From NCBI GenBank assembly GCA_010093995.1, contig ML992514.1:159437-223436 (forward strand): a stretch of 64,000 nucleotides of DNA, read 5' to 3'. Both the position numbers and the translations under genes were made by a program. Shown here one piece after another: positions 840 through 63,490 of this stretch. The DNA is from Elsinoe ampelina. Lineage: Eukaryota. Numbering within the stretch: position 1 is the stretch's first letter; each line of letters starts with the position of its first letter. The notes under the pieces are model-generated. The model ran no database searches, had not been told where the DNA came from, and saw only the letters and a program-made list of their open reading frames with translations.

Positions 840-1693
840 ATGTCTGCTCCCCAAGCACTTTCCACCTCCCGCCTTGATGGCAAGGTCGCCCTCGTCACCG
901 GCTCTGGTAAGTCCTCTCCCCGACTCCCCATCACACAACCCCTAATCCCTTCCCAGGTCGTGGCATCGGCGCCGCCATCGCCACAGAGCTCGCTTCCCGC
1001 GGCGCCTCGGTCGTCGTAAACTACGCCAACGCCGTCGACGCCGCCCAATCCGTCGTCGACGACATCAAAAAAGCCGGCGGCGACGCCATCGCCCTCAAAG
1101 CCGACGTATCCGACGTCTCGCAAACCATCAAACTCTTCGACGACGCCGTGGCGCACTTCGGCCAACTCGACATCGCCGTGTCCAACTCGGGCGTCGTCTC
1201 CTTCGGCCACCTCAAGGACGTCACCGAAGAAGAATTCGACCGCGTCTTCCGCATCAACACCCGGGGCCAATTCTTCGTCGCGCGCGAAGCCTACAAACAC
1301 CTCTCCGTCGGCGGCCGCATCATCCTCATGGGCAGCATCACGGGCCAAGCCAAGGGCGTCCCCAAGCACACCGTGTACTCGGGCACCAAGGGGGCGATCG
1401 AGACGTTCGTGCGCTGCATGGCCATCGACTGCGGGGACAAGCGTATCACGGTCAATTGTGTCGCGCCTGGCGGCATCAAGACGGATATGTACCACGCTGT
1501 TTGCAAGGAGTATATCCCGAACGGAGAGAACTTGACGAACGAGCAGGTGGATGAGTATGCGGCTACGTGGAGTCCGTTGAATAGGGTGGGACAGCCGATT
1601 GATGTTGCGCGGGTTTGTGGGTTTTTGGCGAGTCAGGATGGGGAGTGGATTAATGGGAAGGTGTTGGGGATTGATGGGGCGGCTTGTATGTAG
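840..1693 (+). CDS. THR1: 1,3,8-trihydroxynaphthalene reductase (3HNR, SDR family; DHN-melanin pathway)
   Basis: ATG 840, intron 907-956 (GTAAGT..CTAAT..CAG). Spliced protein has [42 protein letters not shown] catalytic motif and the C-terminus [15 protein letters not shown] typical of Thr1/Brn1/Brm2. Confidence 0.93.
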
Positions 1694-2282
1694 AGGGTTG
1701 GGCAGTGTGATGAATGAGAGGTTTTCATGTTTTTTACCTACCGCTGATGAATTTGGTGAACGGAGGTCCTGCACCCCGATGATATAACCATGGTTCGTTA
1801 AACGTTTAACAAGATCAGCCGAAGGTTGCGGGCTGATCCCCCGTGTCTGGTTCAACGGTTTGTCCGAAACTTTCATCACTTACTTTTTGACATCACAACT
1901 CGAATATGCTATAACATCATCTTGTACATATACCTTCTAGCGTGATCGACTTGGTGCTAACAGCAACAACATGCTTGGCCACCGTCGCAGGACAGAATGC
2001 TGACACCCCTTGGACGCCTAGCCAATCCGTGAGGCTGACATGGCAAAGCACGGGCAATCCGCCATTGCCATCAACAAGCTGAGTATTCTTCACATCCTCT
2101 CCTTTCAAACCCAGATCAACGAGTCCTATGCCGGCGATAAACCATGCCCAAGGCATCAAGCGTGACCCAGTGACGAGCGCACCACCACACCGGCCCCTCC
2201 CACCTTCCGACCCAGGGCATCACCCCGTCAAAGCGCAGCCCGCCCTCCGCCCCCACCACCACTCACCTCTCCTCGACCCAGC

Positions 2283-4101
2283 ATGGCCACATCCCTCACC
2301 CCCCTCCCCTCCCCCTCATCAACCCTAACCCTCACCCGCGCCCCCCTCTCCCCCACCTCCCTCAGCATAACCTACTCCCCCCCCTTCACCTCCCCCACCA
2401 CGCTCTCCACCTCGCAAACCCTCTCCCTCACCACCCTCTGGTCCTCCCGCCCCCCTTCCGCCCTCCCCACCGTCGCGGTCCGATGGGTGAACTCCACTAC
2501 GCTCTACGTTGGGTTGCCGCCTACGTGCGGGGGCTACTTCATGGGAGGGAGAGAGGTGGGGGCCGAGCCGGATGTTTCGGGGTTGGGAGTGGTGGTGGCG
2601 TTTATGGTGTCTGCGTGGGCGGTTTGGGGGGTTGTGGTGGGGGGTTTCCTCGGGGAGAAAGGGAGGGGAGGGGGATGGTTGGGTTGGGGCGAGAAGCAGA
2701 GGGGGGAGAAGGGGGGGAGGGGCGGTGGGGAGGTGAGAGGGGGAAGTCGGGAGGGGGGGAAGGTGGGGAGAGAAGAGGGGATGGGAGAAGGAGGTGGAGG
2801 GGCGATGTTTAGGAGGGCCGTGTTGGTGTTGAGTGATCAGCAGCTTGTCACGGGGGTGGCGATATTGGTGGCTGCGTTTGCGAATTTGGAGGACGTGTCG
2901 GTGTTTCATTATACGTTTGCTGTGCAGTTGGCTTGGGTGAGTTGTTTGTACAACCGTGTGGTGTGAAATGGATGCTGATTCGAGACAGTTGTCAAGTAAC
3001 GTACATCTATCGACGATGCTGTTCTTGCGAGGATATCTACGGGCTCACCCTCGCTATCTCTGGTTCAGGATTTCTGGCATGGTGGTACTGTTCCTCATGC
3101 TCATGGTCGCTCTTATCCCGACACACATGTCCGCTCTCTCGCTTATGAACGAGGACGTCTCGAGGTTTAGAGACATGAGACCAGCGAATGGGATCCCAGC
3201 TGGGTGTCTCTGGAAAGTGCTCGGCAATTGGACACCTCCTCAGGAACAGCTGGGTCAGTTTAGGTCGCCAGCACAAAGATACTTCCCGAAAGGCAATATC
3301 CCAGTCGACGGTCAAGCTGTCCTCTCCACCATCATCTTGTTCTTCACCTTCGTCTGGCGATTGATGAGCATGTTCGATATCTCCAGGGACAGATTCCAGC
3401 ACATGTTCCGGGACCGACCTTCCCTTTTCTTGGACAGGAAAATACAGAGATACATGGGCTCTGCTGGGAGTCTCGTTCGACGGTTCCTGCGGTGGTCGCT
3501 ACGGGTGACACTGATCATACTATACTTGATCCACACCCTCCTATGGGACGCTCTCGATTCATACGCCGGCAGCATCTGGCTTATCACGATCAACTTGTCC
3601 GTCGGAACAGGCCAGCTGATCCAGATTCGCTCACAATTACCACCCACAATAAGAGAGGAAGAAGCAACCTGGACATTTGGCCAGATCATGCCCCTCGCCC
3701 TCCTGGCTCTCCCCATCATCGCCGTAGCAGAAGACATGCTCACCAAGCCGCCAACCCCTCAGTCCTCACGAACAGACTCCAGCATCTCCACCTCCTCTCC
3801 CCCCGGCAACAACCACGCCAGCACCATCACCAACGACACCAAATACCCTGCCACGCAATACACCCCCCTCCCACCCCCCAACACCCGCACCAACTCCCCC
3901 AGCGCTCCCCTCCCCATCCAAACCCACCTCCTCGCCTCCAAACTCTACACCCTTCTCTTCTGGGAAACCCACGCCATGCTGGCCTTCACCGCCATCTGGC
4001 TCCCCATCTCCCGCATCTCGTTCGGCAAGGGGGAGAATTTCTGGTTGAACTACATGTTTATCCCCATGACGATTGGGTGCTCGGGGGGACGGTTGTGGTG
4101 A
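2283..4101 (+). CDS. Multi-pass membrane protein of a fungal uncharacterised family
   Basis: Two ORFs joined by intron 2937-2988 (GTGAGT..CTGAT..CAG). Motifs PDVSGLGVVVAF, LSDQQLVTGVAIL, AWLSSNVHLSTM and WTFGQIMPLALLALP, with several hydrophobic helices. Start and 3' end are uncertain. Confidence 0.7.
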
Positions 4102-4524
4102 TTGGGCCTTTTTAGTGGGGTGTTCAGGAGGAGCAGGATCATGGCGGCCATGGGAGAGGGAGATTGGAGTGATGGTCGGCTGGGGGGGGAAGTGAGGGGG
4201 GAGAAAGGGAGAGTGCTGGAGGAGGGAGAGGTGGAAGGGATTGGGAGGGAGAGTGCGGAGGACAGGAGAGGAGGAGATGGGGATGGAGTATGAGGGTGTG
4301 AGAGGGATTGGGAGGGGGAGGGGGGATGTGAGAGGGGATTGATGGTGGGGTGGCGCTTCGTGGCTGTAGCTCTGATAGGTAGTCGTTATGCATTGCTCTA
4401 TACCATGAGAAATATCGTTGGGAACTATGTACACTGGGGTTTGACTCTTCTTCGTATCCAACGAGCTCTACACTCTACACTGTTCGATTTGCACTGTCTA
4501 CCCCGACCACCACATCACTGTCTC

Positions 4525-6328
4525 CTACCCTCCCATACCATAACTCTTCACCCGACTGAAGTAGAACGCCCTGTCATTCTTCAACCCAAACTCCCCCCAA
4601 TCATCCGTCAACCTATTGTAGCTCCAGTACCCCTTCCAGCCCAACCTCATCCCTCTGCTCCCCTTCTTACCGCCCCCGGTCTGCCCTGCCTGGGTCGCCG
4701 TCGTGGCACTCGAGCTCGCACTCCCCGAACCGATGGCGAACTGCATCTTGTACGTATAGCGAGGTACCACGCCTTCAGTCTCGACGTGCAGATCACCTTC
4801 AGCTTCTTGCGCGTGATCTGAGCTTGGATTGGCTGGGGCGGGAGGAAAAGCTCCGTCACCGGGACCGGATAGGCGCCAGCGACCACGCAAGGCATCTTTC
4901 ATGATTTGACTGGTGGGAAGGGCAGGGGTGTGTTCGGTCTTCTGGGCTTGAGTGTGGGCGTGGGCGTGACTGGATCCGGCTTTGTCGAGGCTGGTGGGAG
5001 GAGGTCTACTCTGGGCCTGGGCGACCGTGTGTGCATTGCGGCGGATCTGGCGAGGGTCGGAAGTTTGTTCCGTGAGGTTCTCTTTGCCGATAACGTGGAC
5101 CACATCGATAGGCTCGGCGGTAGTGAGGAGGGAGATGCACGTTCCGTCACGGTAGAAGCGGAGGTAGCGGTAGTAAGTCACCACATGCACCGGAGTGGAC
5201 CAAGTGTTGATGGTAGGAGAGGCGCCGCCCGGTCGAGTGTAATTGACGGTGGAGATGTAGACACCATGAAAGCGGACACGAGGACGGGCTCTGAACATCT
5301 GGCGCCAGGAAGATGCATAGGCCGAGACAAGGAGATGGTTCGAAATATCCAGGAAGGACGGGGTTGAGATAGGCTCCGGTATAGTCTCATCCGTACTCGA
5401 GGTCTCTGAGGTTCCGAGAGTATGCTCGGACTCTTTGAGCTTTGGCTTGCCGAACACGTCGCATGCGAAAGTATAATGCATGCTACCGAAGCCTTGGTTC
5501 TTGCTAAGAACTACAGCTTTCCAGATCTGCTCTTCAGTCATGACAAGGTACGCAAACTTCTTGCACACGACGGCGAGACGTCCGAATGCGCCAATGTTGG
5601 ACCTGCCGACATGGTACAAGATCTGCGTGATGATCTCTTGTGGCAGCTCGGAAATGGGACATGGCGGAGTGGGCGAAGCATCGGTGGGAGGTTCTGCACC
5701 TGGGATGGACAGAGATGCGAATTCCTCTACGAGTTGGTTTATAGTAGGCGGGAGACCATGTAGCGAGTGGTGTGCAGGATTGGGTACAGTGGCGGAAGCG
5801 TTTGATGGGTTGATCTGCGAGGGCTTGAAGGCGGAAGCTGATGGTGGGAAGTGTTTGTTCTTATACTTTTCGTGAACATTATCGTCAAGCTGAACGTGTC
5901 AGCGCGAAGAGATGATCTTGGAGTGATACACGTACCCTGAATGCTCTCCGATACAGCTTCAAGCTCTCTCCGAGCTTTCCTGCCGTCTCATGCTCGACGG
6001 CCTTCTCATAATGCTCAAGTGCTGTGACCGGCTCTGTCGAAGGACCGGGGCATACCAAGCCTTTCTCTGATGCTCCAAGTTTCAATGCTTCCTCCTTGTC
6101 AGGTAGATCATGGAACGTAGGGCCAGCAGTATCGTCATTCACTTGTGGCAATTTGCCACTTGCCGTAGGCGCATTTGATATCGCGGATTTTCGCTTGTCT
6201 AACGATCCCGTCGTTTCTTGTGTCTTTGCTCCGGACGAGGGACCGGCTCTACTCCGTGTAGATACCTCTGCCTTCCATTGCTGCCGGAACTTTTCAAGTT
6301 CGGCTTCCGTGTTTGAGGGGTCGGACAT
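4525..6328 (-). CDS. HRT3: F-box protein Hrt3/Pof7 (FBXO9-like)
   Basis: N-terminal ELEKFRQQWKAEV, ALEHYEKAVEHETAGKLGESLKLYRRAFR, intron 5890-5935, F-box region, then RPRVRFHGVYISTVNY, VTYYRYLRFYRDG and FYFSRVKSY. Confidence 0.85.
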
Positions 6329-13017: not shown

Positions 13018-13836
13018 ATGGCCTGGCGATGTTCCGGCAAGACCAACACCGAGCTTGTTCAGAACATGTTCAACGCTGGACTCATCACCTCTGAACGAGT
13101 CAAGGAAGCCATGCTAAAGGTACATTTCACTTCCAAAATACTCATTTCGCATGCGAGACCTCATCGCACATAACCTCCCAAACACATAGTTCCCCAGTCA
13201 ATATCTATATTCTAGCAAAATGTATTAACCCTCAACCCCCCTCAGGTCGACAGAGCGCACTACACCCCCCTCTCGCCGTACTCCGACTCCCCGCAACCCA
13301 TCGGCCACCGCGCCACCATCTCCGCGCCCCACATGCACGCCGCAGCCTGCGAATCACTCCTCCCTTACCTCCACCCGGGCGCTAGAGTCCTCGACATAGG
13401 TTCCGGATCGGGCTACCTCACGCATGTCCTCGCCGAGCTGGTCCAGCCCGGCGGTAAGGTAGTGGGGGTGGAGCACATTCCTGCGCTGGTGGAGCTGGCG
13501 AGGGGGAACACGGGGAAGTCGGAGGGGGGAAGGGGGTTGTTGGGGAGTGGAGGGGTGAGGTACGTGAGGGGGGATGGGAGGGTGGGGTGGCGGGACGATG
13601 GGGGGGAGGGGATGGGGTGGGATGCGATTCATGTGGGCGCCGCGGCGGCGGGGGGGTTGGAGGGGGTGAGGAGGTTGGAGGAGCAGTTGGGGAGGCCGGG
13701 GAGGATGTTTGTCCCTGTGGAGGAGGAGGGGGGGGAGCAGTGGGTTTGGGTGGTGAGTAGGGATGAGAAGGGGGAGGTGAGGAGGGAGAGGGGGGTGGGG
13801 GTTAGGTATGTGCCGTTGACGGATGCGCCGGAGTAG
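13018..13836 (+). CDS. PCMT1: Protein-L-isoaspartate O-methyltransferase (PIMT)
   Basis: MAWRCSGKTNTELVQNM, intron 13120-13245, TISAPHMHA, VLDIGSGSGY, DAIHVGAAA and VRYVPLTD. Confidence 0.93.
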
Positions 13837-14929
13837 ATTGGGTAAATTGGTGATCTTCTCGTAATGTTCGTACAGTCTGGTGTGGATATGTCACATCGTG
13901 TTCTGGTGGTGCTTGAGCGCTGGGTTCTCAAGATGCTTTCGAGTCATGCTGAGCTCGGTCCGATGTCTGCTTGACTCTTGTCGGATGTGGTGCCCTGGGG
14001 CAAGCCGAATCGCTGGCACCAACTCCGGGCTGCAAACTCGCACCACCTGCAACCTTATCTGGGCGGCTCAAGCTTCAAGCTTCTGATGCCTGCAGGCGGG
14101 AAAGCGTCATGACCAGACGATCAAGTCACGGTCAATAATCTCCAGCTAGCTTCGCTGCTCAAAACAGGTCTTTACCTCAAATACAGGGACACGTCAACAT
14201 GCAGCAGCACAATTAGGGCCTGAGCTCGTTCCTTGAACGACAGTGGGTTTTGGAACTGCGGTGAGCTCCGTTTTTGTGTTCAAGATCTCGGCGACGTGTC
14301 TCGCACAGATCTTTAGATCTCGAGATCGATGGACGGATGCAGATTCGTTCATCGCTTGCCAAATTCTGACCAGCACTCGAGGCGCGAGCAACACACCCTC
14401 TTTTTCACGCTCCAACTGACCACGTGTGGATTGTGCTTCTTTGACGGCGGAAATTCTCGTCGAGCGGCAGGAATAATTGGATCATTACTTCGCAATTATT
14501 ATCGTTAAACCTTCGTTTGTCATTTTGGCTCTTTACGATCTTCACCGCGGCGGAGTTCGCACATGCAAACCTGTATCGATCGAAGATTTGCCAGATTCGC
14601 ATCGTCGCAACCCCTTCCCGTCGGTCTGGCCCCGCAAAACTCTAAGCGATTCTTTCCCAGCACCGGAAATCCTGCGCCCTCGCTGTCATCGGGCCCTTTT
14701 GGCAGAAACTTCAACGTCGACCTGGACACCTTCTTGACCCTGGTGACGTAGGAATTTCTCTGACCAACGCAACCCTTCTCTCCTACGCCTCACCTCTCTC
14801 AGTCCCGGTGAGCCCCGGTATAGAGTCTTGTGAAGCATTCTCCGGGCTGCCTTCGGACTTTTCTTCCGGAACATATCCTCGACTCCGCGGGTGCCTAGGT
14901 CAGAAGACGCATGAGGCACGACATTGGTC

Positions 14930-17279
14930 ATGCCTCGCGAACACAAGAAGCGAGGCAAGAGGGGAGGCAAGAAGCGCAAGCTCGAAGAAGATGGTGAAGA
15001 CCTGCCCGAGTCGTCGAAACGAACGAGATTAGAAAATGGGGAGGAAGATGGGCACAAGAATGGGATATCCGGAGATACAGACGGCTTGGCTGAGAACAAC
15101 GACTATCAACCGCTTGAGCAAAATGGAGTGCAGCAAGAACCATATGCGGGTGATGCGAATGAGAAGATCTTCTTCGGGATGCTGGACGAGGATGAGCAGG
15201 AGTTCTTCAAGAAGGCAGACGAGAGGCTGGAGCTAGACGACTTCGAGGGACCTGAGGATAAGGCGCAGTTCCTTGAGGGAGTGTACAGGGAAGCGGACGG
15301 AAAAGAGTTGAAGCTCGCCTGCAGTCAGAGCTGTTCGAGGGTGTTGGAGAGGTTGATTCAGCTATCCTCTTCGCAACAACTCAGCAAGCTGTTTCAGAAG
15401 TTCAACGGACAGTGAGTTACGTACGGCACCAGGTTGGACAACAGCTGACAGTCATAGTTTCTTGCCGCTTGTACAACATCGCTTCGCCTCGCATTGCTGC
15501 GAGAAGCTCTTCATCAAAGCGGCCCCGATCGTGACAGAAGAGTTGCTGCACAAGGGCGGCGACAAGTTCCAAGGTCTGTCCGATGACGACGTCTGTGTCT
15601 CCATGGAGGATCTTTTCCTGCATACAGTTGCGGAACTCGAGAGCAACATCGGTTTCCTCATCACGGACCGATTTGGCTCTCATGCTCTTCGAGTCTTGCT
15701 CCTCGTCCTGGCCGGAGAACCCCTCACGAGCCCGTCGCAGAAGTCGTTACTTTCTAGCAAGAAGAAAGAGCATGTCGCTCGGGAGAAGTCAAATGACGAA
15801 ACCGAGATTAGGCTGGATCGCAAGCGAACGGTCCCAAAAGCATTCGCACAAGCGCTAGAGAAGATCCTGCATGACTGCGCCACTGGACTTCATACAGCTG
15901 GTCTACGAACGCTTGCGACACATCAGCTCGGTAGTCCAATCCTACAAGTCCTGGTTCGACTAGAATTGATCCACTTTGGCAAGGCACGAGCAAAAGAGGA
16001 GGGCTCGATCATCCGCACACTGTTCCCTGAGGATCCTGTCACGCAAGAGACGGAGAGCGCAAGCTTCATAAATGGGCTCAACTATGACCCGGTTGGCTCG
16101 CATCTTCTGGAAGCTGTGATTGAGAATGCCCCAGGCAAGATGTTCAAGCACTTGTACAAGGAGTTTTGGAAGGACCGAATGGCTTCACTGTCACGCAACG
16201 AGGTCGCCGTCTACATTGTCTGCAAGATATTGGAGCGCTTGGGACGAGATGATCTTATTGATGCTCATGAGCTGATAGTCGGTGTGCTCCCCGATTTGCT
16301 CGACCGGAACAGGATATCAGTCATCAAGACTTTAATCCAGCGGTGTGCAGTCCGCAACGTGGACACACAAGCCATTGCGGTGGCCCTCAATGCATACTAC
16401 TCAGAAGAGGACGACGAGTTTGATCTACTCAAGCTTCTCCGCCTTGACAAAGGAGAACTGGAGGATGCATATAAGCGACGACCACGAGTACAGCCACCTC
16501 CGGAAGGTGCCTTGACTGCAAGGCAGACCGTGTCAGTCGAGCCGTCCTCAGCGCCACCGCCAGTCACTCGCACGAGACCACCTTCAAGCTCAGATCCGGC
16601 CAGAGTGCAAGGGTCAGTCTTGGCTCAGGCCATGATCCTAGTCCCCGGCCCGCTTTCTGGCCTCATCTTCGACTCCATGTCTCGACTGCCGCCACAAGTT
16701 CTGATTGCCATGGCTATTGATCCCGTGGCTTCTCGGACGGTGCAAGCAACCATGAGAAGCACAAACGCCTCGATCATTCCCAGGCGGAAACTAGTCCAGC
16801 AGTTCTACGGTCACATTGGTGAAATGTCGTTGGATGTATCGGCTTCGCACGTGGTTGATGCTATCTGGGAAGGGACACATGGGCTTGCATTCATCCGTGA
16901 GCGCATTGCAGAGGAGCTGGCCGAGAATGAGGGTCAACTACGAGAGTCACCATATGGTCGAGCTGTGTGGAAGAACTGGAAGATGGATCTATACAAGAGA
17001 CGCAGGCCAGAATGGGTCATGCAGAGCAGGAACAAAGCCAGCAATGATGGCTTTCAGAGTTTTGAAGAGCTGGATCTCAACAAGAAGAAGATGGATACTG
17101 ATATGAATGGCAAGAAAGCAGAGGGTATACCTGCGCCAGGCGAAGTGAAGGAGAAATCTGCGCTCGAGAAGGCCAGGGATCGGCATTTCGCCCGCAAGCA
17201 GAAAGGTCGAGAGAGCAAGAGCCAAAGCAGCGGGAGGAGTGAAGGAGGACCTGCGGGTGCAAGCACCACTGCTGTATAG
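14930..17279 (+). CDS. NOP9: Nucleolar protein 9 (PUF-like 40S biogenesis factor)
   Basis: MPREHKKRGKRG, FFGMLDEDEQEFF, KELKLACSQSCSRVLERL, intron 15412-15457, HRFASHCCEKL and GRAVWKNWKMDLYKRR. Confidence 0.92.
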
Positions 17280-17843
17280 AGGTCGGAGATCCAGAATCGG
17301 GCGGCGACGAGATCACGAGAAGTGGCAATCAGAAGAATCACAAAAGAAGATGGATCAGATGGCGTTCGCATAGCACGATAATCTCTTGCTACTTGATGGG
17401 CTGTAAAATAATTCCATATATGCATACGACTGGCAAGTCAGATGGGCTGGATAGTAGGTGGGAAATTCACTTTGTCTGAGACATACTCCGTCCTACGCTC
17501 CCGTTCACCTGTCAGACTGTTCTATGCCACAAGTGGTCACAATTGCATCCCTAGCGCCAGATCTCATCCAGATCTCACCACGGCTGATCTGCAAGATGGT
17601 GTGCCATGTCGTCATCTCCGATTGGACGATGATGTCCACTTTCGACCAGAAATTTTGTCGTTCATGGCATTTGACGACGACGAGTGATCCGATGGTCTCT
17701 TTGACACTTGCAGCTACATACTAGTATTTTGATATAGTAACTCACTATATCATAGACTTCGCGTAGCCTGCACCGTTTAGACTACTTGATCACGCCATCG
17801 CCTCCTGCATCCTCATCCCCCACAGCTTAAAGCAGCCGCAAGC

Positions 17844-19498
17844 ATGGCCGCCAACCACACCTCACTCCCATCCCGCCCAGCAGCAGAGGACACTCCCAAC
17901 CGAGCCGCCGAACTCGAAGACGTAAGCCCCTCCCTCGCATATCCCTCCATCACCACCCCCTTACCCCCTTCCAGCTCCTCCACTCCATCCTCCCTCTCCT
18001 CACCACCCACATCTCCACCGCCGACGCCGCCACCCCCTCCAAATCCACCGGCCACGGCCTCCAAACCCCCGGCTCCGGCCCCCGCACCGCCCTCACCGAA
18101 CACCACCCCCCACCCAAACTCACCTCCCTCCTCTCCCTCACCCTCCCCTCCGCGGCAGGCGGCAAAGACGCCCTCATCCCCCTCGTGCAACGCCTGCTCC
18201 AATACAGCGTCAACACATGGGACCAAGGCTTCCTGGACAAACTCTACGGCAGCACCAACCCCATCGGCGTGGCGAGCGAGCTCATCCTCGCGGTGCTCAA
18301 CACAAACGTGCACGTCTTCTCCGTCTCCCCCGCCCTCACCGTCGTGGAGAAAACAGTCACGCGCGAACTCGCGCGCATGTTCGGCTTCGGCGGGGCGCAC
18401 GCGGGGGGCGTGAGCCAGCCCGGGGGCTCGGCGGGCAACGGGCTGAGTATGGTCGTCGCGCGCAACAAATTATTCCCTGACACGAAGACCGGGGGCCTCG
18501 GGGGCAGGAAGTTTGTCCTGTTCACGAGTGCCCACGGGCATTATAGTCTCGAGAAGGCGGCGCAGATGTATGGTTTTGGCAGCGAGAACGTGAGAGGGGT
18601 GCCGGTGGATGGGAGGGGGAGGATGAAGGCTGAGGAGTTGGGGAGGTTGGTCGCGGAGGCGAGGGGGAGGGGGGAGACGCCGTTTTATGTGAATGCCACG
18701 GCGGGCACGACGGTGTTGGGGAGTTATGATCCTTTCAGGGAGGTGGCGGAGGTTTGTGAGAGGGAGGGGTTGTGGTTGCATGTTGATGCGAGTTGGGGTG
18801 GGCCGGTGGTGTTTAGTGGGATGCAGAGGGGAAAGTTGGAGGGCGTGGAGAGGGCGGATTCGGTGGCGTTTACGCCGCATAAGATGTTGGGGGTGCCGTT
18901 GACGTGTAGCTTTTTGATTGTCAAGGATGTGAGGGTGTTGCAGAAGTCGATGACGTTGCCGGCTGGGTATTTGTTTCATGGGGATGAGGAGGATGAGTCG
19001 GTGGTGGATGGCACGGTGCCGGTGGATGGGGTTGTCAAGGTGCCGGTCGAGGAAAAGCAAGAGGAGTTTTGGGATCTGGCGGATCTGACGCCGCAATGTG
19101 GAAGAAAGGGTGAGGCGTTGAAGCTGGCGTTGGGATGGGTGTACTATGGTACGGAAGGATATGAGGAGCTGGTGGATGATGCGTTCGACACGGCGGCATA
19201 CATGGCTCAACAGGTGCAGGAGAAGGAAGCCTTCACACTCATCTCGGAGAACCCACCACCTTGCCTACAGGTCTGTTTCTACTACGGCAAGAAGACTGGT
19301 GAAGGAGCAAAGGCGAAGAACAGCAAAATCACAGCCACAGTTGCGAAGAAGCTGGTACCACGAGGCTTCATGATCGATTACGCACCGGGTGAAGAAGGAC
19401 AGTTTTTCAGAGTTGTGGTCAATGGTCAGACGACAAAGGGCACTATAGATGGCATTCTCAAGGCGATAGAGGATATCGGCAAGGATGTTGCTGTATAG
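17844..19498 (+). CDS. Group II PLP-dependent decarboxylase (GAD/CSAD/aspartate decarboxylase-like)
   Basis: ATG 17844, intron 17922-17974 gives one continuous frame. Motifs YSVNTWDQGFLDKLY, TAGTTVLGSYDP, LHVDASWGG and the PLP lysine motif TPHKMLGVP. Confidence 0.88.
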
Positions 19499-36814: not shown

Positions 36815-37695
36815 TACGGACCAGATTGTCAAGGCTTCACCAACAAACACGCCCTCTGCGTCGCGCAGAAACACGAAGGCATTTGCCGAACATGCGGTCC
36901 CGCCCCGCCGAAACGACATGGAACCTGGTGTCGACTCAAGTGGTTCATCATCGACCTGATCAGGAACTGATCTTTGCATCTACAGGCGTTTTGGGTTTTG
37001 TTTTTGTCTCATTTGTCTTTCTTTTGTCTTTCCTTTGTCGCCCTGCTGATTGGAGAGGCCTTCTCGTGGCGCAGGGTGTTAGTAGTCACTGACTGATCTC
37101 GACCTCATGGTCGTTGGTCGTCTTTGGACGAAGCTAGCGTCTCCAAGTAGATACTCGTCGACTGCAACGCATCTTGATTGATACTTCCATTCCATCCATT
37201 GTCTGTACTCCATGCTGCATTGTCCGTCATACCTTGTTGCTGCTGAGCACCCTTACGTCTTGACATGATTTGCTGCGTCAGGTGAACCAACTTGCAGACC
37301 CGACTCAGCTTCGCTGCCTTCTCAATTTTTCCGAGATCTTGCCATCGTGTGCTTGTCCATTCAAGAATCTGTATGAGCATGACGTTCAAGCAACAATCAA
37401 GCTGTTGCTATTCCCCCTAGCCATACTTCAGCAGTACCAACGGTGTTTTCTCCATGCTTCCTCATGGTCTCTGACACCTACCGTTCCCTCCGACCTTGAA
37501 TAATAAATCACACTTGCCTGACTGCGTCACAGCACACCGATCTCACTCGACCAGAGTATGAGACACATGGGGCACGTTCGCAACATTGACACATTTAGAA
37601 CAATCAAAGAGAGTCATCAATTCCCCTCCCCCAGAACACCACGCTACAAGCGAAAGCCCCAAGCCCAATATCATAATCTCATTTTCCCCTCCCCC

Positions 37696-45669: not shown

Positions 45670-45828
45670 CGTCGGCTTGTGAAGACAAGACCATGACATG
45701 GTAGTAAACGTCGATATCTCTGTTCATGAACTGTCCAAAATCCTGTCTAGTCCTACATACACATTGAAAGTAGAAATTTTCGGGCTTGGTGGTGGTATGC
45801 GTTGATGAAACGGAATAGTAGTCGGTCA

Positions 45829-48556: not shown

Positions 48557-49566
48557 TTACGTGTCGGAAGAGCTGACCACGATTTTGCCTCGAGCTCGAC
48601 CAGTCTTGAGCTTCTCAAAAGCCTTGGGAGCATCCTCAAAGGAGAAGACAGTATCCACCATGGTCTTGAGCTCACCCTTCGCAGCCCACTCCGCCAACCT
48701 ATCCATATCCTCCCTACTATTCTTCGCCACAACCATCCCCACGGCGTCTTTGGCCCACCCAACGCCGCCGGCAGCAACGCACTCTTCGCAAACTCCACCA
48801 CCGACCCCCATCCAATCTCCGCCCCAACCTGAACATACCTCCCCTTCACCCTCCCATCACAAGCCTTATGCAACCCCCTCGGCATCCCAACATTATCAAC
48901 CACCAGATCCCACTCCCCCTTCTTCACCGCCTCCCTCACATCCACCGTCTTGTAATCCACCACCTCCCCAACCCCCAACTCCCTCACCATCTGCACATTC
49001 GCCCCACTACACGTCCCCACCACCTCCCCCGCCCCCAACAACCGCGCCACCTGCACCGTATAACTCCCCACACCCCCACTCGCCCCATTCACAAACACGC
49101 TCCCTCCCCGCTCCAACCCCCTCAGGCTCTGCAACGCCGTCTGCCCCGCGGTCCCAAGACACGCGCCGTCCACCCACCCCACACCATCCGGCAACCTCGC
49201 CACATCCCCCGCCTCGACTGCGACCCACTCCGCCAGCGCCCCACGCCTCGCGGGTCCATCGAACCGTCCGAAAACCCTCGTGCCGGGCCGAAACTCGGCA
49301 TCGGCACCGGCGCATCTCACCTCGCCTGAGAAATCCAGGCAGGGCGTCGCGGGTCGGCGGGGGAAGAGCGACGAGAGGATGGGGAGTTCGGCGAGTTTGT
49401 AGTCTGCTGGGTTGAGGGCGGTGGCGTGGACGCGGACGAGGAGGGTGGAGCCGCGGGGTGGGGGGAAGTGGAAGGGGGCGCTGGAGAGGTGTAGGGTGTG
49501 TTCGATGCCGGAGGGGGAGGAGGTGGTGGGGAGGGACCAGTGTTGGTAGGTTTGGGGGAGGGACAT
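48557..49566 (-). CDS. MDR-family quinone-oxidoreductase-like protein (Yim1/RTN4IP1 type) with a 1-nt frameshift
   Basis: VRVHATALNPADYK, LDFSGEV and VFVNGASGGVGSYTVQVA. The conserved C-terminus VDTVFSFEDAPKAFEKLKTGRARGKIVV lies in another frame after the G4 run at 48737-48740. Confidence 0.82.
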
Positions 49567-50225
49567 GGTTGGATGGGAAGCGGGGAGGAGGAGGTGGGTG
49601 TGGTAGGGGAGGGGATGGTGAGAGGTTGGGGTGATGTATTGATTTTACCCTCTAACGTGAAGTTTCTGTTGGAGCGAGCTCCTGGTGATAGGTGTTGAAG
49701 TGACCTTGTGATCCTGGGTTGGTAAAGTCGATCTGCCGGCTCTCTCAAGTGGTTTGTCCTGACTGTGTCGCCGAGCTCTACAATGTACTTCCTGACATTC
49801 ACATTACCCGATCTCTAGTCTTGAATTGCTGTTCCCTCGTAAGGCGTGCTGGACACTAAATATTGATTGTCAGTTCAGAGAGTGGAGTACTTGACCATGT
49901 CGTCACGACAGGTCCACAGTCGATCACATGCCAAGTCCGGCCACGACTTCCGTGAAGATCTACAGGTACAGCCCCTCATGTATCCGGTCGATCCCAATTA
50001 TTCTTTCTCGACAAATCAGCTTCTGTCAAATCGTCAAATTTCAGCGTCTGTGCCTTTATCATAATCTGGAGAAAGCACATGGGAATCATGTGCTGATCGT
50101 GATGGCAAAATCGGCAGGGTACACACTCGGGAACACATCAGTCTCAAAGGAGGGTTCTCAGATATCGACTCGTCGGCAGAAATCGATTGGGTGCCTGATG
50201 GGCAGGGTGATGACCCGTGCCGTTG

Positions 50226-57531: not shown

Positions 57532-57646
57532 AAGGCATTGATCTCAATCAGCATATCTCTCTAGCACCACAACCGGTAGCTTTCCAATGCATGGGTATCA
57601 TAACCTTCACTCCGCCAATCCCAGCTATTCCCCATGTCTCCATCAA

Positions 57647-58225
57647 TCAAGCATCCCCCATCTCCACCTCCCCCTCCCCCTTCTCCCTCCTCACCGCATC
57701 CTCCACCAACCCCTTCGCCTCCCCCAACACCTCCCCCTCCTTCTCCAACCCCCCCTTCCCCACCCTCGAATTCAACCACGCAACATCCAACCCCCCCAAC
57801 CCACCATTCGTCAACCTCTCCTCCTCCGTCTGCGTCTTCTGCCCCATCGGTCCTCCCTGCGCTCTATTCCTCTCCGCCGGCCCGCTGGACGCAGACGCCA
57901 AGATCGGCGCTTCGGCGGAGATGATGCCCGCTTCTTCGAGCGCGTAGGCTTGGCGGCGCAGGCGGGCCATGACGGATTGCAGGGTAGTGAAGTAGGTTTT
58001 TGCGTTGGTTGCGAAGGCTTGTTTCGCGGCGTCGAGGGATTGGGGTTCGTGGGTGGTTGGTGGGGAGGAGGTGTTGTCTGGTGAGGACGAGGAAGGGGAC
58101 GCTTCGCCTGTTAGTGCGAGGAGGGCGGCGCTGGCGGAGGAGAGGAGCGTGGGGACGTCGGCGTTGATGGACGAGAGGTCGCGGATGCGGTCGGTGGAGG
58201 AGATGGTGGGTTGTGAAGCTGGCAT
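57647..58225 (-). CDS. MED11: Mediator subunit 11
   Basis: DRIRDLSSINADV, YFTTLQSVMARLRRQAYALEEAGII and NGGLGGLDVAWLNSR, matching the Pezizomycotina Med11 pattern. Confidence 0.82.
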   Translation of the reverse strand: MPASQPTISSTDRIRDLSSINADVPTLLSSASAALLALTGEASPSSSSPDNTSSPPTTHEPQSLDAAKQAFATNAKTYFTTLQSVMARLRRQAYALEEAGIISAEAPILASASSGPAERNRAQGGPMGQKTQTEEERLTNGGLGGLDVAWLNSRVGKGGLEKEGEVLGEAKGLVEDAVRREKGEGEVEMGDA

Positions 58226-58465
58226 TGTGTCTGAAGCACGCGGTGGTGCGAGTGGTTTTATCTCAACCCATTGATGGTGATGGGGAGGTGAGGTGTAGTT
58301 GGCGGTGGTTGTGGATGTGGATATCAGGTCTTGGCATGCGCGGGTGAGAGTTGCGGCTCTGCGTGTCATGTCGCGAACCTGGACTTTCTTCTTCACTTCA
58401 ACATCACATTGATATGGAATTTTGTTTCATCAAATCATGATCGCATAACGATATCGAACGCCAAA

Positions 58466-60991
58466 ATGTCGGGACAACAGCCTCCGCCGTCGCGGACGGC
58501 CTCTGTTGGTCCACAGAGCGCGGGCTTGCCTCCGCAGCAGCAGGTTGCGCCTCAGCAGCCGCAGAGCCAGCAGAATTTGAATCAAATTGTACGTATTGAC
58601 TTTCCAAACATCTTCTCTCCCGCACGGAACGTGTTCGTGGATGGGCGGGAACATGTGGACGAAGTGGCGATGGACGACGGCGACGACCACTCGTGCAACT
58701 GTGCGATGAGCGCAAGTGTGGAAGCAACGACTATTTGAAAAGGACGGTGTGACTACTTCGATACAGAAGAAACCCATCAATCTGCGAACTCCATCATTTG
58801 CGTGTCCACTCTATCATCCATCGCACATAGGAATCATCATCATGAGCATGCGGTCTAACTATTTGGATTTACAGGTGCTGGAGTATCTCAGTAAAAAAGG
58901 CTACAATCGCACGGAGGCGATGCTTCGGAAGGAGTCCTCGAGACAAGATGCAGAGGGACGACCAATTCCCTCACGTGCCGAGGAGGCTGGCGGCGACATG
59001 TACGTCAGAGCCTTCGACCTCATCATGCGATGGACCGAGACAGTCCTCGACATCTACAAAGTCGAGCTCAAGCGTCTTCTCTGGCCTCTCTTTGTCTACT
59101 CCTTCACCAATCTTGCCTCCGACTACTATCCAAAGGAGGCCGAGAAGTTCTTCAATCTATACAAGGACAGATTTGAGAAGGAATTCGAGGACGACCTTCG
59201 CGCCATGTCCAACATTCGCCTACCAGAACACGTTCAGAGCAATGAGACTGCGAAGCTTTATCGCGAAAATAAATATCGGCTTACTCTATCGACGGCCGCA
59301 TATTCGCTGCTGATTCAATACCTGGAGTCCAAGGAGACAGATGGTGGAAGCGTCATTAACACACTTCTCTCGAACTACTTTAATTTGCAAACTGTCGACC
59401 GGGTCGCTGCAGGACAAGAGCGAAGTCTAGCCCGCTTACTAGCGAGCAGATTCGAGGACAAGGACGTTCCAGCCGAAGACGAAGGCATTCCAGGACACAA
59501 TCCAGGATCTGCCAACACGAGCAAAGATGCTCCACCAGTCTTGACGAAGCTTAGCCTTGCACCACTGCCAATGGAGCAGGATTTGATGGAAGATGTCAAG
59601 GCCGAGCTGGAAGACCACGACTCCTCACATCCTCCAGGTGTAGGCAAGAATACGCTTGTGGAGGAATTCGAGAAGCGTATCAAGCAAGAACCATTGGACG
59701 ATGCACCCTCACGAGACGCCATACCGTACCCTCCATCGTTAGCCAGAGATGTCGCCATGGAAGTGCAGAGGATCAAGGAGAACAGGGATCGCTTCAAGAT
59801 CGAAGGCCGAACGGGAGGTGTTGGTCCTGGTGTCAGTGTGACCATGTTCACCTTTCACAACACTTACGACAGGTAAAGAAAGGTCGTTGCTTGTTGGAAG
59901 ATCAGCACTAATGATGACGCAGCCTCAACTGCATCGAGTTCTCAGGAGATAATACTCTGGTCGCTGTCGGAACTTCCGAATCATACATCCGCGTCTGGTC
60001 ACTGGAGAACAAACCGCTGGTGTCCCCACTCGACCCTCCAGATTATCATGCCTCGCAATCACGTCGTCTCATAGGACATTCAGGTCCAGTATATGCTCTC
60101 TCCTTCTCCCCATCGATACACGTTCCAGATACCACTCCTACTACAAATGGCACCAATGGCACAGCATCGTCACATCCTTACCCCGCCGGAGCACCTCGCT
60201 ATCTACTATCTTCGTCCGCCGATGCCACTATCCGCCTATGGGACCTTTCCTCCTTCTCCCAACTCGTCATCTACCGCTCCCACTCCGGTCCAGTCTGGGA
60301 TGTTCGCTTCTCCCCCTTCGGTCACTACTTTCTCTCCTCCTCCACAGACCGCACCGCCCGCATGTGGTCGACCTCCCACATCTCCCCTCACCGCCTCTTC
60401 GTAGGCCACGACGCCGGCGTCGATGTCGTCGCCTGGCACCCCAACTCAGCCTACGTCTTCACCGGCTCCGGCTCTCCCGACCGCACAGTCCGCATGTGGG
60501 ACGTCCAACGCGGCAGCGCAGTCCGCATGTTCACCGGCCACACAGGCAACATCACTGCTCTGGCTGCGAGTCCTAGTGGGAAGATGCTCGCGTCTGCAGA
60601 CGACAGGGGCGAGGTCATTGTGTGGGATCTGGCAGCCGGTCGTCTCCTCAAGCGCATGCGCGGACACGCCAGAGGCGGCGTCTGGTCCCTCGACTGGTCC
60701 GTCGAAAGCACGGTGCTGGTATCTGGCGGCGCAGATGCGACTGTCCGTGTATGGGACGTGCAGCCCATCAGCTCGGCAGTAGGGGAGACGCGGTCGGGAG
60801 AAGCAGGGCAGGGCAAGACGGACGGCGCGGCTGCTGCTGCGGGCGTGTCGGGCAAGAAAGGTAAGGTGAAGGATGTGGTGGTTTCGCCGGAGCAGATCAG
60901 TGCGTTCCCGACCAAGAAGAGTCCGGTGTACAAGGTCAGGTTCACGCAGATGAATCTTGTGCTGGCCGGGGGTGCGTATTTGCCGCAGTAG
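58466..60991 (+). CDS. TAF5: TFIID subunit 5
   Basis: LisH-like QIVLEYLSKKGYNRTE across intron 58589-58874, NTD2 LWPLFVY, intron 59873-59922, WD40 repeats and C-terminal FPTKKSPVYKVRFT. Confidence 0.95.
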
Positions 60992-61186
60992 GAGTCCCCG
61001 TACAAGGCTGAAACACGGGAGGCATGACTGCTGATACCTGGGGAGGGAAGCCGGCGTTCTGGGCGCGGAAAAAGGGGCAGCGTCTCGAGACAGCTCACAA
61101 TTGATCTAGTTACAAGTCTACCCAAGCCTTCCACACCTCTCCCCGTTCCTGCAGCAGCCCTCCCCTCAACCACCAATGAGACAGTC

Positions 61187-63490
61187 TCACGCCTTCCCAT
61201 CCAGTCCCCTCGCCCCCTTCCCCAGCACTAGTTCCTCCATGACACCCTCCTTGAGATGCCCCCTCTTCTGCGCCCGATGCAACAACTCGATCAACTTCCT
61301 GATCCTCAAATCTTTCGAGTTCCTCTTCCCCCCGGGCTGTCCATCGTCAGGCGCATGCGTCTGGCCCCCGCGGATGGCCATTTGCACGCGGTCGGGCCCG
61401 TAGTCTTGGAGTTCGCGGATCCAGCGGTCGTTCACCCAGCGGCCTTTGGGGTAGGAGTCGTATGCGAGGAAGCTGGTGAGGGTTTGGCGGAGGAAGAGGG
61501 GGGAGGTGGGGGGGATGCGGCGGGGTGAGGTGGGGGGAGAGGGGAGGGTTGGGTGGGAGGGCGAGAAGAGCGGAGAGGAAGAGGAGGAGGAGGAGGAGGG
61601 GGAGGAGGAGGAGGAGGAGGAGGAGGAGGAAGAGGGAGGGGGGCAGGTGCTGTACAGGCGTCGCAGGCTGGGGAGGGTGATGGTTGAGAATGGCCGCGTC
61701 AGGTATGGGCTCTTCGAGAGAGGGGAGCCGGTGGTCGGGGGAGCTGGACGAGAGGAGTGGGACGATGAGGCGGGTTCATCGGTGAAAGCTCTTGCCTCTT
61801 CTTCGGAAAGGCACTGGTCCAGCAAGGCGTCTGTTTGCGCTTTAATGTGGTCATAGGAGTGACGCTGCTCGGGCGCTTCCTTCGTGGTCTCTGAGACCTG
61901 GCGTTGGTTTGTCGGCTTTGCTGAAGCAGCGTCTTCTTCCTTAACAGATCTTCCAGGCTTCAAGTAGGACGGCGACCGGAGAACGCCGTATGCTTGATTC
62001 GCGTACGCAAGTGATGTCCGCTGGAGTGGCTCAGTCACTTCTTGCCATGGTTCATTGGCATCTGTGGTACGCCTTGACAACTTGACAACCTCGCAGAACA
62101 TCACTTTGTGGTCTCCAATCTTGACGGACTTGCCCTGTATCAGCCGACATCTGAGATGTGCCAGTACACCTGGAGAGTCGATATACACAGCACCTTCGGG
62201 GTCAATATCGATTCTGGTATGTTCGAGGCTATCCACTTTCCGGAAGGGTTCGAGCAGGCTCATGCCCTTGTGAGCCGCAAATGGCTTCGCAATCTGCACG
62301 CCCGCGGCGTTGGCACCGAGTAGATGCACGTCACAGTATCCGACCTGGTCGATCTTCTGAGCTGTTCGACTGTCGGCAAGCAAATTGAATGACACGACTG
62401 GGGCAGGTCGAACAGCAACGCTTGCCAGTGAAGACACCGTGGATCCTCGACAACCCAAGAAGCGCTCCTCGGACGTGGATGCTTCATTTGGTAGTCGTGT
62501 CGTGAGCACTGCCACGGGGTTGACGACCGAGCGCATGACATGACGAAAAGAAGCCTCGACAGTCGAGTCTTGAAGCTCTACGTTGGTGGTCTTGGGGCCA
62601 AGTGACTTCCATGTACCACCAATTTGCAATTTCTGGATCCTGTTGACCATGTTCTCTACCTGCTTCGGATCGCCTGTGATTCGTAGCGGTAGCATCGGAG
62701 GCCTCCCATTCACTACGAGCCGCGTGACACTCCTCGGGGCTTGCGCGCTTTTCCGACTAATAAGCCCTGCCGCAGACGAGATTGCTGCTTCTTCCATAGG
62801 AAAAAGCATGGCAATCTCCCGTGGTACATCGACCGTCGTGGTCACCTCCACGACCTTGTAGTCCTTCAAAGCTGCTTGATGTGATCCAGTGCTCCAATTG
62901 TTCAACCCTGCAACGTGGTCATGCAAAAGGCTTCCGCTTCGCAATCCAGCCGTGGCTTTCCGAGTCACTTCCACACTCGGTGCATCAGCGTTTCCATCTG
63001 GACGATCTCCGTCAGCTACTCGTGTGGTATGCCTTTTCTCAGCCACACCATCTGCACCCAGGCTGCGAGACAAGGACTGCATGGCGACTCTGACATCGCC
63101 AGCGCTGCCAGACAAGTACAAGACTGTGCCAGAGTCACATGGAGAGCCCAACTCGATGTCGCACCCTGTCAAAACCTGCAGCTCTTTCAACGTCTGGTGG
63201 TCTTTCAGTTGTTGAAGCTGATCTGTGGACAAGCTGACTTTTGCGGTAGTGGTTGGCTGAGATCCCGCCTTGGGATTCTGGTTCGTGTCGACACTCGAGC
63301 CATTGTCAGGCAGTGTTCTCGCGGTGAGATTACTTCTCGCGTTCCTGCGAGTTGTCGAGGACAAATGTCGTGATAGCGTCCGAGCATGGCAGGTCTGCCG
63401 CGGGAGACTGGTGTGGGAAAGTAGCGAATATTCGAATAAGGCGCAGAAGAACCTGGTTGAGGCGCGCCCTCCCCCTGGTAAGTCAAGCAT
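61187..63490 (-). CDS. Flavin-reductase-like domain protein, probably mitochondrial
   Basis: FRHVMRSVVNPVAVLTT, GSTVSSLASV, VVSFNL, VHLL and GDHKVMFCEV form the Flavin_Reduct pattern. Arg/Ser-rich N-terminus. Start codon uncertain. Confidence 0.75.
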   Translation of the reverse strand: MLDLPGGGRASTRFFCALFEYSLLSHTSLPRQTCHARTLSRHLSSTTRRNARSNLTARTLPDNGSSVDTNQNPKAGSQPTTTAKVSLSTDQLQQLKDHQTLKELQVLTGCDIELGSPCDSGTVLYLSGSAGDVRVAMQSLSRSLGADGVAEKRHTTRVADGDRPDGNADAPSVEVTRKATAGLRSGSLLHDHVAGLNNWSTGSHQAALKDYKVVEVTTTVDVPREIAMLFPMEEAAISSAAGLISRKSAQAPRSVTRLVVNGRPPMLPLRITGDPKQVENMVNRIQKLQIGGTWKSLGPKTTNVELQDSTVEASFRHVMRSVVNPVAVLTTRLPNEASTSEERFLGCRGSTVSSLASVAVRPAPVVSFNLLADSRTAQKIDQVGYCDVHLLGANAAGVQIAKPFAAHKGMSLLEPFRKVDSLEHTRIDIDPEGAVYIDSPGVLAHLRCRLIQGKSVKIGDHKVMFCEVVKLSRRTTDANEPWQEVTEPLQRTSLAYANQAYGVLRSPSYLKPGRSVKEEDAASAKPTNQRQVSETTKEAPEQRHSYDHIKAQTDALLDQCLSEEEARAFTDEPASSSHSSRPAPPTTGSPLSKSPYLTRPFSTITLPSLRRLYSTCPPPSSSSSSSSSSSPSSSSSSSSPLFSPSHPTLPSPPTSPRRIPPTSPLFLRQTLTSFLAYDSYPKGRWVNDRWIRELQDYGPDRVQMAIRGGQTHAPDDGQPGGKRNSKDLRIRKLIELLHRAQKRGHLKEGVMEELVLGKGARGLDGKA
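61572..61641 (+). repeat. (GAG)n trinucleotide tract encoding poly-Ser on the minus strand
   Basis: About 20 near-perfect GAG/GAA units, read directly from the sequence. Confidence 0.9.

Follow-up and report, generated by a model that had tools for sequence, protein, structure and literature searches.

What do the abrupt switches from C-rich to G-rich DNA in the genome of the fungus Elsinoe ampelina mark? We addressed this question in a window of 64,000 nucleotides (assembly GCA_010093995.1, contig ML992514.1, positions 159,437 to 223,436 of the forward strand), which is the whole stretch analyzed here and to which all window coordinates below refer. A preliminary description of the window had taken each switch to be the center of a fixed site at which a bidirectional, strand-asymmetric mutation or repair process acts, such as a replication origin or a meiotic double-strand-break hotspot, and had proposed that a map of such sites can be read directly from sequence. 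Our analysis leads to a different answer. The skew domains are an instance of a known, gene-anchored compositional skew of fungi that is locally unusually strong, and they do not provide a map from which replication origins or recombination hotspots can be read.

The window has a G+C content of 54% and no overall skew between G and C, and in a profile of 400-bp windows the skew falls below -0.5 and then rises above +0.5 in the windows that follow. Segments were called with a three-state hidden Markov model (HMM), with a simple threshold scan as a second approach; HMM segments were counted only if they were at least 150 bp long, and neighbors were scored as C-then-G or G-then-C when they lay within 400 bp of each other. 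The HMM returned 34 skewed segments (17 C-rich and 17 G-rich) with a total length of 11,773 bp, or 18% of the window, and the two approaches together outlined paired C-rich and G-rich segments of ~0.2 to 0.8 kb with skews of ~-0.45 to -0.78 and +0.5 to +0.77, respectively. C-then-G neighbors outnumbered G-then-C neighbors by 11 to 2 (label permutation, P = 5e-5), and when triplets were shuffled within 3-kb blocks (10 runs), skewed HMM states covered only 0 to 704 bp, compared with 12,741 bp in the observed sequence. Long C/T tracts followed by G/A tracts are also visible by direct reading of the domain DNA. The recurrent C-then-G domains of the preliminary description are therefore real, as the segment calls, the order of neighbors, and the shuffle control all indicate.

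For all further tests we defined 15 bipolar domains, with arms of 93 to 766 bp and with centers that lie in exons and have a GC content of 0.53 to 0.69. When aligned on their centers, the domains show a sigmoid change of skew over ~200 bp and a GC peak of 0.65, compared with 0.52 outside (0.63 to 0.66 within 250 bp of the center). With alignment on the outer edges instead, the skew changes abruptly from -0.08 to -0.65 inside 50 bp, although the sharpness of this step is partly by construction because the HMM itself sets the edges. Just outside the edges the profile reaches only +0.10 to +0.14, and most edges have no complementary skew beyond them. Within the domains, GC skew and TA skew are uncorrelated (r = 0.01).

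Most of what had been described by eye was recovered. Of 16 flip points listed, 15 were found again, all within 173 bp of our centers and 14 within 68 bp; the flip placed at 38.25 kb was not called, as no G arm was detected there and the only feature is a C-rich segment at 37615 to 38067, broken by a 61-bp G stretch and close to the 3' end of a centrosomin-like gene on the - strand. Long genes said to lack a domain (SMC6, NOP9, TIP20, SRO7, and an esterase gene) do coincide with long neutral HMM runs, and the two flips assigned to the gene at 2283 to 4101 (here called the 2283 gene) correspond to one 5' module and one 3' module. The reported CpG-rich core held as a matter of density (10.5 CpG per 100 bp, against ~6) and not as a CpG-specific signal. 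The CpG observed/expected ratio is 1.05 at the centers and 0.89 outside, and GpC rises likewise, up to 9.5 per 100 bp; because the ratio is about 1 and GpC is equally raised, the core is the expected product of C-rich and G-rich compositions that cross.

Pfam scans of 276 stop-to-stop open reading frames (ORFs) placed the domains on conserved host genes. On the + strand the hosts include genes for a short-chain dehydrogenase, an isoaspartate methyltransferase, a pyridoxal phosphate (PLP)-dependent decarboxylase, SGT1, PDCD2, and TAF5, and on the - strand they include genes for ClpP, CSN8, an MDR dehydrogenase, and Med11, an F-box gene, and a gene with a flavin reductase domain. In all 15 domains, with genes on both strands, the sense direction runs from C-rich to G-rich. 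Because a sense C-to-G pattern is its own reverse complement, it appears as C-then-G on the + strand regardless of the strand of the gene. The claim that the flips run C then G on both strands is thus correct as a description, whereas its reading as a mark of fixed sites does not follow, as a coding-strand rule (C at the 5' end, G at the 3' end) produces the same picture.

For 11 of 14 genes, no more than 125 nt separate the stop codon from the outer edge of the sense G arm (null probability per edge, 0.09 to 0.14; binomial P of ~1e-9 to 8e-8), and in 8 of the 14 the G arm ends 0 to 252 nt beyond the stop. C arms start upstream of the ATG by 53 nt in the decarboxylase gene, 103 nt in the 2283 gene, and 70 nt in the MDR gene, and in Med11 the C arm starts 13 nt inside the start codon; by eye, TATA-like words can be seen ~30 to 45 nt upstream of two C-arm starts. 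Over the 23 long ORFs of the window, sense skew near the stop codon rises to +0.43. In short genes the domain covers the whole gene, and longer genes carry a compact module of adjoining C and G arms at the 3' end (TAF5, the flavin reductase gene, the F-box gene, PDCD2, and a gene for a 617-amino-acid [617-aa] protein) or at the 5' end (the decarboxylase gene and exon 1 of the 2283 gene). The flip does not occur at a constant fraction of the gene: our own arithmetic placed it anywhere from ~0.1 to 0.95.

The bias is strongest at sites that do not affect the protein. Third-codon-position skew within single genes runs from ~-0.9 to +0.9 or +1.0, and GC content at third positions is 0.75 to 0.9 in domain genes, compared with ~0.45 to 0.65 elsewhere. 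To describe site composition, 30-codon windows were assigned to C arms, G arms, or controls according to the skew of each window itself; the sign of the arm composition is therefore circular, while the base exchanges remain informative. At four-fold sites, C made up 63% in C arms, 10% in G arms, and 33% in controls, and G made up 7%, 67%, and 22%, respectively; total GC at these sites was 0.70 to 0.77 in the arms and 0.55 in controls. The fraction of C at two-fold pyrimidine sites was 0.83 in C arms, 0.25 in G arms, and 0.60 in controls, and the fraction of G at two-fold purine sites was 0.28, 0.85, and 0.61. In C arms, C thus replaces T and A replaces G, with complementary exchanges in G arms, and purine/pyrimidine content moves too. 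Amino acid use is shifted as well, with Pro, Ser, Thr, and His raised in C arms and Gly, Glu, Val, and Trp raised in G arms, and in conserved enzymes the skew overrides the preferred amino acids.

Twelve noncoding pieces were measured. The 11 untranslated-region (UTR) and intron pieces that lie inside domains have skews of -0.45 to -0.76 or +0.83 to +0.96, and the remaining piece, which is the final intron of the gene that ends at 45669 and sits immediately outside that gene's domain, has a skew of -0.18. Because UTRs and introns are as skewed as coding sequence, the bias acts on DNA or on the primary transcript and not through selection on protein or codons. Two expectations of the preliminary description were borne out here, namely, that a strand-asymmetric process on DNA and not protein selection is at work, given an effect that is strongest at synonymous sites and equal in UTRs and introns, and that the skew persists at synonymous and noncoding sites, as a check run of third positions, introns, and UTRs confirmed.

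Some further features of the domains concern the coding sequence itself. Ser/Pro-rich tracts in sense C arms are longer in E. ampelina than in the Elsinoe batatas orthologues, with a Ser run in the flavin reductase gene at ~61450 to 61770 and a Pro/Ser tract in the 617-aa gene at 44600 to 44750, and skewed composition appears to go with low-complexity expansion. ORFs of 150 to 400 codons are open on both strands over the domains (e.g., 44449 to 45669 on the + strand and 44596 to 45699 on the - strand). DNA that is poor in G or C contains few stop codons, which explains these open frames, and ORF length is therefore no evidence of coding within domains.

The same modules recur on unrelated ascomycete contigs, where they are likewise anchored to ORF ends. 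The closest relatives of E. ampelina are E. batatas, E. fawcettii, E. australis, Sphaceloma murrayae, and Myriangium, and the three window proteins compared were 68 to 81% identical to their closest named orthologues. Two proteins of the window have database counterparts with 100% identity, one of which is named E. ampelina. For a broader comparison we used 80 fungal loci (877 kb) on metagenome contigs, chosen through an alignment of the decarboxylase. With the same HMM, the skewed fraction was 0 to 15% in those loci of at least 10 kb, compared with 18% in the window. Over all 80 loci, neighbors were C-then-G in 37 cases and G-then-C in 18, with 27 distinct C-then-G modules, and for 166 long ORFs the sense skew climbed from ~-0.1 to a peak of +0.26 just ahead of the stop codon and returned to zero by +100. 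Pfam scans of 25 ORFs from 11 of the 27 modules assigned a family to 9 ORFs. Orthologues of NOP9 (in two loci) and TIP20 carried modules at their 3' ends, and short genes of the NAD-binding, MDR, and GFA families were covered entirely, with edges 2 to 50 nt from the ORF ends.

The genes that carry a module differ between lineages, as NOP9 and TIP20 have modules only elsewhere and the module of the decarboxylase is reduced elsewhere, where most orthologues show only a G-rich 3' tip. An amino acid skew index for the decarboxylase (C-arm and G-arm values) was -0.37 and +0.35 in E. ampelina, -0.16 to -0.27 and +0.26 to +0.31 in three other Elsinoaceae and Myriangium, and on average -0.01 and +0.13 in 116 other fungi. 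The 3'-end skew of long ORFs is unimodal, with a mean of 0.23 in the window and 0.21 in other fungi. As a separate observation on this locus, NOP9 and the decarboxylase gene adjoin in tandem in the window (14915 to 19498) and also adjoin on unrelated fungal contigs, where they are divergent in two loci (L010:7120-11530 and L016:6273-11554).

A search of the literature yielded no accepted cause for the fungal 5' C/3' G skew, and a search on Elsinoe and GC skew returned nothing relevant, the sole match being an unrelated Bacillus paper. We infer that the domains reasonably likely reflect a neutral, strand-asymmetric substitution bias linked to the transcription unit and coupled to transcription by polymerase II, and not selection on proteins. 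Under this explanation, the coding strand would be C-rich and G-poor over the first few hundred bases of the transcription unit and G-rich and C-poor over the last few hundred, as far as roughly the poly(A) site. Where a gene is short, or within a terminal piece of 0.6 to 1.4 kb, the two zones abut and thus make a GC-rich island with a flip in its middle. We speculate that whichever strand is single stranded during transcription would be damaged and acquire C>T, C>G, and A>G changes. The exposed strand may be the nontemplate strand toward the 3' end of the sense RNA and the other strand wherever antisense or early-elongation events dominate toward the 5' end. As G-rich RNA favors R-loops, such a bias could reinforce itself.

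Several observations weigh against this transcription-linked explanation, at least in its simplest form. The pattern is not a simple scaled 5'-to-3' gradient, since in TAF5, the flavin reductase gene, and the F-box gene the C arm immediately precedes the G arm at the 3' end and is distant from the gene's 5' end. In the decarboxylase gene the G arm stops 317 nt before the stop codon, and in SGT1 the domain begins 300 nt after the ATG, with G-skewed DNA in the first 300 nt of the gene; this 5' G skew is apparently a continuation of the arm that belongs to the divergent ClpP gene. Domains are absent from many genes, with no obvious rule, and the GC peak at the center (0.65 versus 0.52) would also be expected from a process that acts outward from the center. 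Moreover, a model of sense R-loops only would predict a G-rich 5' end, as in mammals, and the 5' C arm needs an extra assumption. Polarized amino acid changes on the E. ampelina branch are few (1 to 10 per arm) and have no direction, and thus an ongoing drive is not demonstrated.

A stronger form of the idea, possible in our view and still doubtful, is that the domains are discrete, heritable "skew islands" produced by a self-reinforcing strand-asymmetric process, beyond averaged ramps at gene ends. In one candidate process, C>T, C>G, and A>G changes would accumulate on the strand left exposed by R-loops and make the RNA still more G-rich, with sense RNA acting at 3' ends and antisense RNA acting at the other arm. 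Such islands could be gained and lost gene by gene in each lineage, which may account for the modules of NOP9 and TIP20 in other ascomycetes and for a full decarboxylase module only in Elsinoe and its relatives, and they could bias conserved enzymes toward Pro/Ser or Gly/Glu codons and give rise to low-complexity expansions.

The remaining explanations differ from a transcription-linked bias mainly in what they place at the center of a domain. That the centers are intragenic meiotic hotspots, at which GC-biased and strand-asymmetric heteroduplex repair enriches C to the left and G to the right, seems unlikely to us, although such a process would account for the GC-rich island centered on the flip (0.63 to 0.66 within 250 bp), for the raised four-fold GC content (0.70 to 0.77, against 0.55 in controls) in roughly symmetric arms, and for the variation of domains by gene and lineage, as with the NOP9 and TIP20 modules that exist elsewhere and not here. 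A fitting polarity might arise if repair on the invading strand corrected purine-containing mismatches and G:T mismatches more efficiently than C:C and pyrimidine mismatches, a preference that we derive ourselves from yeast genetics. In Zymoseptoria, another Dothideomycete genus, 1435 of 2578 linkage disequilibrium hotspots lie in exons, whereas GC-biased conversion is reported there as extremely weak or absent. A break-centered process has no reason to respect gene ends, yet the edges lie at start and stop codons, and the centers lie in exons and not in nucleosome-free intergenic DNA. Hinch et al. (2023) describe human break hotspots at which the forward strand is single stranded on the left side of the break, with C>N and A>N changes in the flanks. 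The likeness to the window is a kilobase-scale, two-sided asymmetry that switches at a center, and C>N and A>G changes would fit the arms. The difference is that C>N and A>N changes on the forward strand would leave the left side G-rich and the right side C-rich, so that the polarity predicted around a central break, if the human signature applies, is the reverse of that observed; the coding-strand rule gives the observed polarity with no hotspot. Breaks in the gaps flanking genes would have the right polarity and were also considered, but they are disfavored, as most edges have no complementary skew beyond them and the profile outside reaches only +0.10 to +0.14. Replication origins, with arms formed by leading- and lagging-strand asymmetry, would share their polarity with bacterial origins, which are C-rich to the left and G-rich to the right. 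This explanation fits poorly because there are 15 centers in 64 kb, these are GC-rich exons, and the arms end after only 0.2 to 0.8 kb, at gene ends and not at a terminus, and we give it very little credence. The proposal that the centers are fixed sites, be they origins or break hotspots, is hence not supported, given the gene-end edges, the coding-strand rule, the recurrence in other ascomycetes, and the reversed damage polarity.

Transcription could instead start at the centers, which would then be intragenic bidirectional promoters like those of mammalian CpG islands, with divergent transcripts exposing the nontemplate strands. The GC-rich, CpG-dense centers agree with this idea, as does the polarity, which equals that of human CpG islands, reported by Polak and Arndt (2009) to be origins of bidirectional strand asymmetry. 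Both there and here, C-rich DNA lies to the left and G-rich DNA to the right of a GC-rich center, and a transcription-linked, neutral origin has been proposed for the human case. There, transcription starts at the center and the coding strand becomes G-rich downstream of it, whereas here the center lies in mid-gene, the coding strand is C-rich first, and there is no contrast in CpG observed/expected ratio. The centers fall in the middle of conserved exons and the outer edges fit the host gene's own ends; an observed/expected ratio of 1.05 against 0.89 outside, with GpC equally enriched, is not the signature of an island; and the fungal coding strand downstream of starts is reported to be C-biased and not G-biased. 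We therefore consider such promoters decidedly improbable. R-loop promoters with GC skew, of the kind to which the same comparison extends, have reportedly been described by Ginno et al. Selection at the level of RNA or transcription, through late avoidance of C where CTP is limiting, G-rich 3' ends that aid termination, or avoidance of structure, is improbable as well. The CTP and polymerase II (Pol II)-spacing hypothesis of McLean and Tirosh (2011) and the skew of UTRs and introns, which are parts of the primary transcript, speak for it, whereas complementarity between arms does not exceed that of composition-matched shuffles (mean z = -0.27), preferred amino acids are overridden in conserved enzymes, many genes lack the skew, and nothing in the sequence requires selection. 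The same shuffles led us to reject a hairpin between the C and G arms, which pair no better than the controls. Three domains have their start at the last intron, which suggested conversion by spliced cDNA; the C-rich intron inside the decarboxylase domain and the intronless flavin reductase gene contradict this idea. Finally, the domains might be copies of mobile elements or gene-conversion repeats like the GRINS, which were described in 2021 as duplicated elements (>80% identity, >500 bp) with correlated GC and TA skews. They share with GRINS an abrupt and intense skew that is strongest at third positions, with functional proteins recoded and amino acid use reshaped, and they differ in both duplication and skew correlation. 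Comparison of the 15 domains with one another by BLASTN gave no nonself match when low-complexity sequence was filtered and, without the filter, only low-complexity matches, and GC and TA skews are uncorrelated in the domains (r = 0.01), which makes this explanation highly improbable.

The individual domains, all called by the HMM, show how closely the skew follows gene structure. A weak domain at 745 to 1721 covers the short-chain dehydrogenase gene (+ strand; Pfam adh_short_C2), with a C arm at 745 to 954, a long, GC-rich neutral middle, and a G arm at 1541 to 1721 that ends 28 nt beyond the stop codon; the third-position skew of this gene runs from -0.84 to +0.75. The 2283 gene (+ strand) has its first domain at 2180 to 2903 (C arm, 2180 to 2471; G arm, 2543 to 2903), which spans the 5' UTR (2180 to 2282; skew, -0.62) and exon 1, and its second domain at the 3' end, at 3691 to 4353, where the C arm (3691 to 4023) lies in coding sequence and the G arm (4024 to 4353) is mostly 3' UTR (stop codon at 4101; skew of +0.83 over 4102 to 4353). 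A weak domain at 4498 to 5004 marks the 3' end of the F-box gene (- strand; Pfam FBO_C/F-box-like), with its edge 27 nt beyond the stop. In the protein-L-isoaspartate O-methyltransferase gene (+ strand; Pfam PCMT), the domain at 13159 to 13852 occupies the last exon and starts within the preceding intron (intron piece, -0.67; third positions, -0.64 to +0.95).

The PLP-dependent decarboxylase gene (+ strand; supported by Pfam and by orthologues), with coding sequence at 17844 to 17921 and 17975 to 19498, carries a domain at 17791 to 19181 that takes in the 5' UTR, intron 1 (skew, -0.76), and the first 1.3 kb, with third-position skew from -1.00 to +0.89. The ClpP protease gene (- strand; Pfam CLP_protease) has a domain at 29289 to 30275, and weaker G skew runs on to 30624, into the 5' coding sequence of the divergent SGT1/ecdysoneless-like gene (+ strand; Pfam SGT1). 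The domain within SGT1 (30625 to 32066; ATG at ~30322, stop at 32215) is the least edge-anchored case. In the interval 30321 to 30400, a single CATG provides both the start codon of SGT1 and the first ATG in frame with the divergent ClpP ORF, so the 5' ends of the two genes may overlap, and SGT1 opens with a short repeat of Gly-Ser, Gly-Asp, and Gly-Ile codons. The domain at 33610 to 34590 covers the 3' 0.9 kb of the PDCD2-like gene (+ strand; Pfam PDCD2_C), where the 3' UTR piece has a skew of +0.85. A weak domain at 34877 to 35438, seen also in the threshold scan, lies in the CSN8/PSMD8-family gene (- strand; Pfam) with its edge at the stop codon.

In the 617-aa gene (+ strand), which is specific to Elsinoe, the domain at 44421 to 45608 occupies the last exon and begins at the end of the last intron; the protein is 100% identical to one named as from E. 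ampelina and 68% identical to one of E. batatas. The zinc-type (MDR) dehydrogenase gene (- strand; Pfam ADH_N/ADH_zinc_N) has a domain at 48671 to 49636 that extends 70 nt upstream of the ATG at 49566, with third-position skew from -0.90 to +1.00 and a 5' UTR piece at +0.96. At 48560 to 48860 the C-terminal part of the MDR protein (ADH_zinc_N_2) is in another frame than the rest of the gene, which points to an intron or a frameshift near 48.85 kb. The Med11 gene (- strand; Pfam Med11) has a domain at 57604 to 58356. In TAF5 (+ strand; Pfam TFIID_NTD2 and WD40), the first 1.4 kb are neutral and the domain, at 60096 to 60881, lies in the last (WD40) exon. The 767-aa flavin reductase domain gene (- strand; Pfam, gene model, and orthologues), which is intronless, has a domain at 61118 to 61774 over its last 0.6 kb and 3' UTR, with a Ser/Pro-rich linker as the sense C arm and a conserved C-terminal module as the sense G arm.

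Other compositional features of the window are of a different kind. An unpaired segment with an excess of C over G at 20842 to 20962, upstream of an ORF starting at 21086, is AT-rich (GC content, 0.42; skew, -0.84) and unlike the GC-rich domain arms in composition. Two coiled-coil genes, SMC6 (+ strand; A/T skew of ~+0.25 to +0.45 at 26400 to 28400) and the centrosomin-like gene (- strand; -0.26 to -0.42 at 38400 to 41200), have no G/C skew in these intervals, and the coding strand is A-rich in both.

Overall, the window presents the fungal 5' C/3' G skew at near-saturating strength in single conserved genes. Its strength, together with the availability of sequenced relatives, makes E. ampelina a good species in which to separate mutation bias from fixation bias, and the species is also suited to testing links to transcript ends, antisense RNA, and R-loops. 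The domains carry two warnings, as the amino acid composition and low-complexity tracts within them are driven by base composition, and as flips of skew should not be read as origins or hotspots.

How, then, does the skew in this window compare with that known from other fungi? Fujimori et al. (2005; BMC Genomics 6:26) reported an excess of C over G on the coding strand at transcription starts in plants and fungi, and the C arms that begin 53 to 103 nt upstream of three start codons resemble it. The difference is that, in the portion of their paper available, the signal is a start-site peak alone, with neither a G-rich partner nor 3' anchoring. The closest counterpart is the skew described by McLean and Tirosh (2011; BMC Genomics 12:638) in more than 60 fungi, Dothideomycetes among them, where the coding strand has an excess of C at the 5' end of genes and an excess of G at the 3' end. 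In that study the skew reaches promoters and UTRs, four-fold sites, and amino acid usage with little change in A/T, is significant in only part of the genes, and correlates weakly with expression; its cause was not established and was thought to be linked to transcription, with the adaptive CTP and Pol II-spacing hypothesis put forward. The E. ampelina domains agree in the 5' C/3' G order on the coding strand (all 15 domains), in the extension into UTRs (11 noncoding pieces), in the effects at four-fold sites and on amino acids, and in the restriction to a subset of genes. They also agree in that A/T skew is little changed (r = 0.01 here), yet two-fold sites trade T for C and A for G. McLean and Tirosh worked with genome-wide averages and a three-line model of a 5' ramp, a flat middle, and a 3' ramp. 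Such a three-part profile can be seen in the decarboxylase orthologue of some other fungi, and the long genes of the window are either flat or carry a module of C and G arms at one end. What sets E. ampelina apart is that third-position skew in single genes runs from -0.9 to +1.0 and that the C and G zones abut to form compact GC-rich modules, in several long genes at one end.

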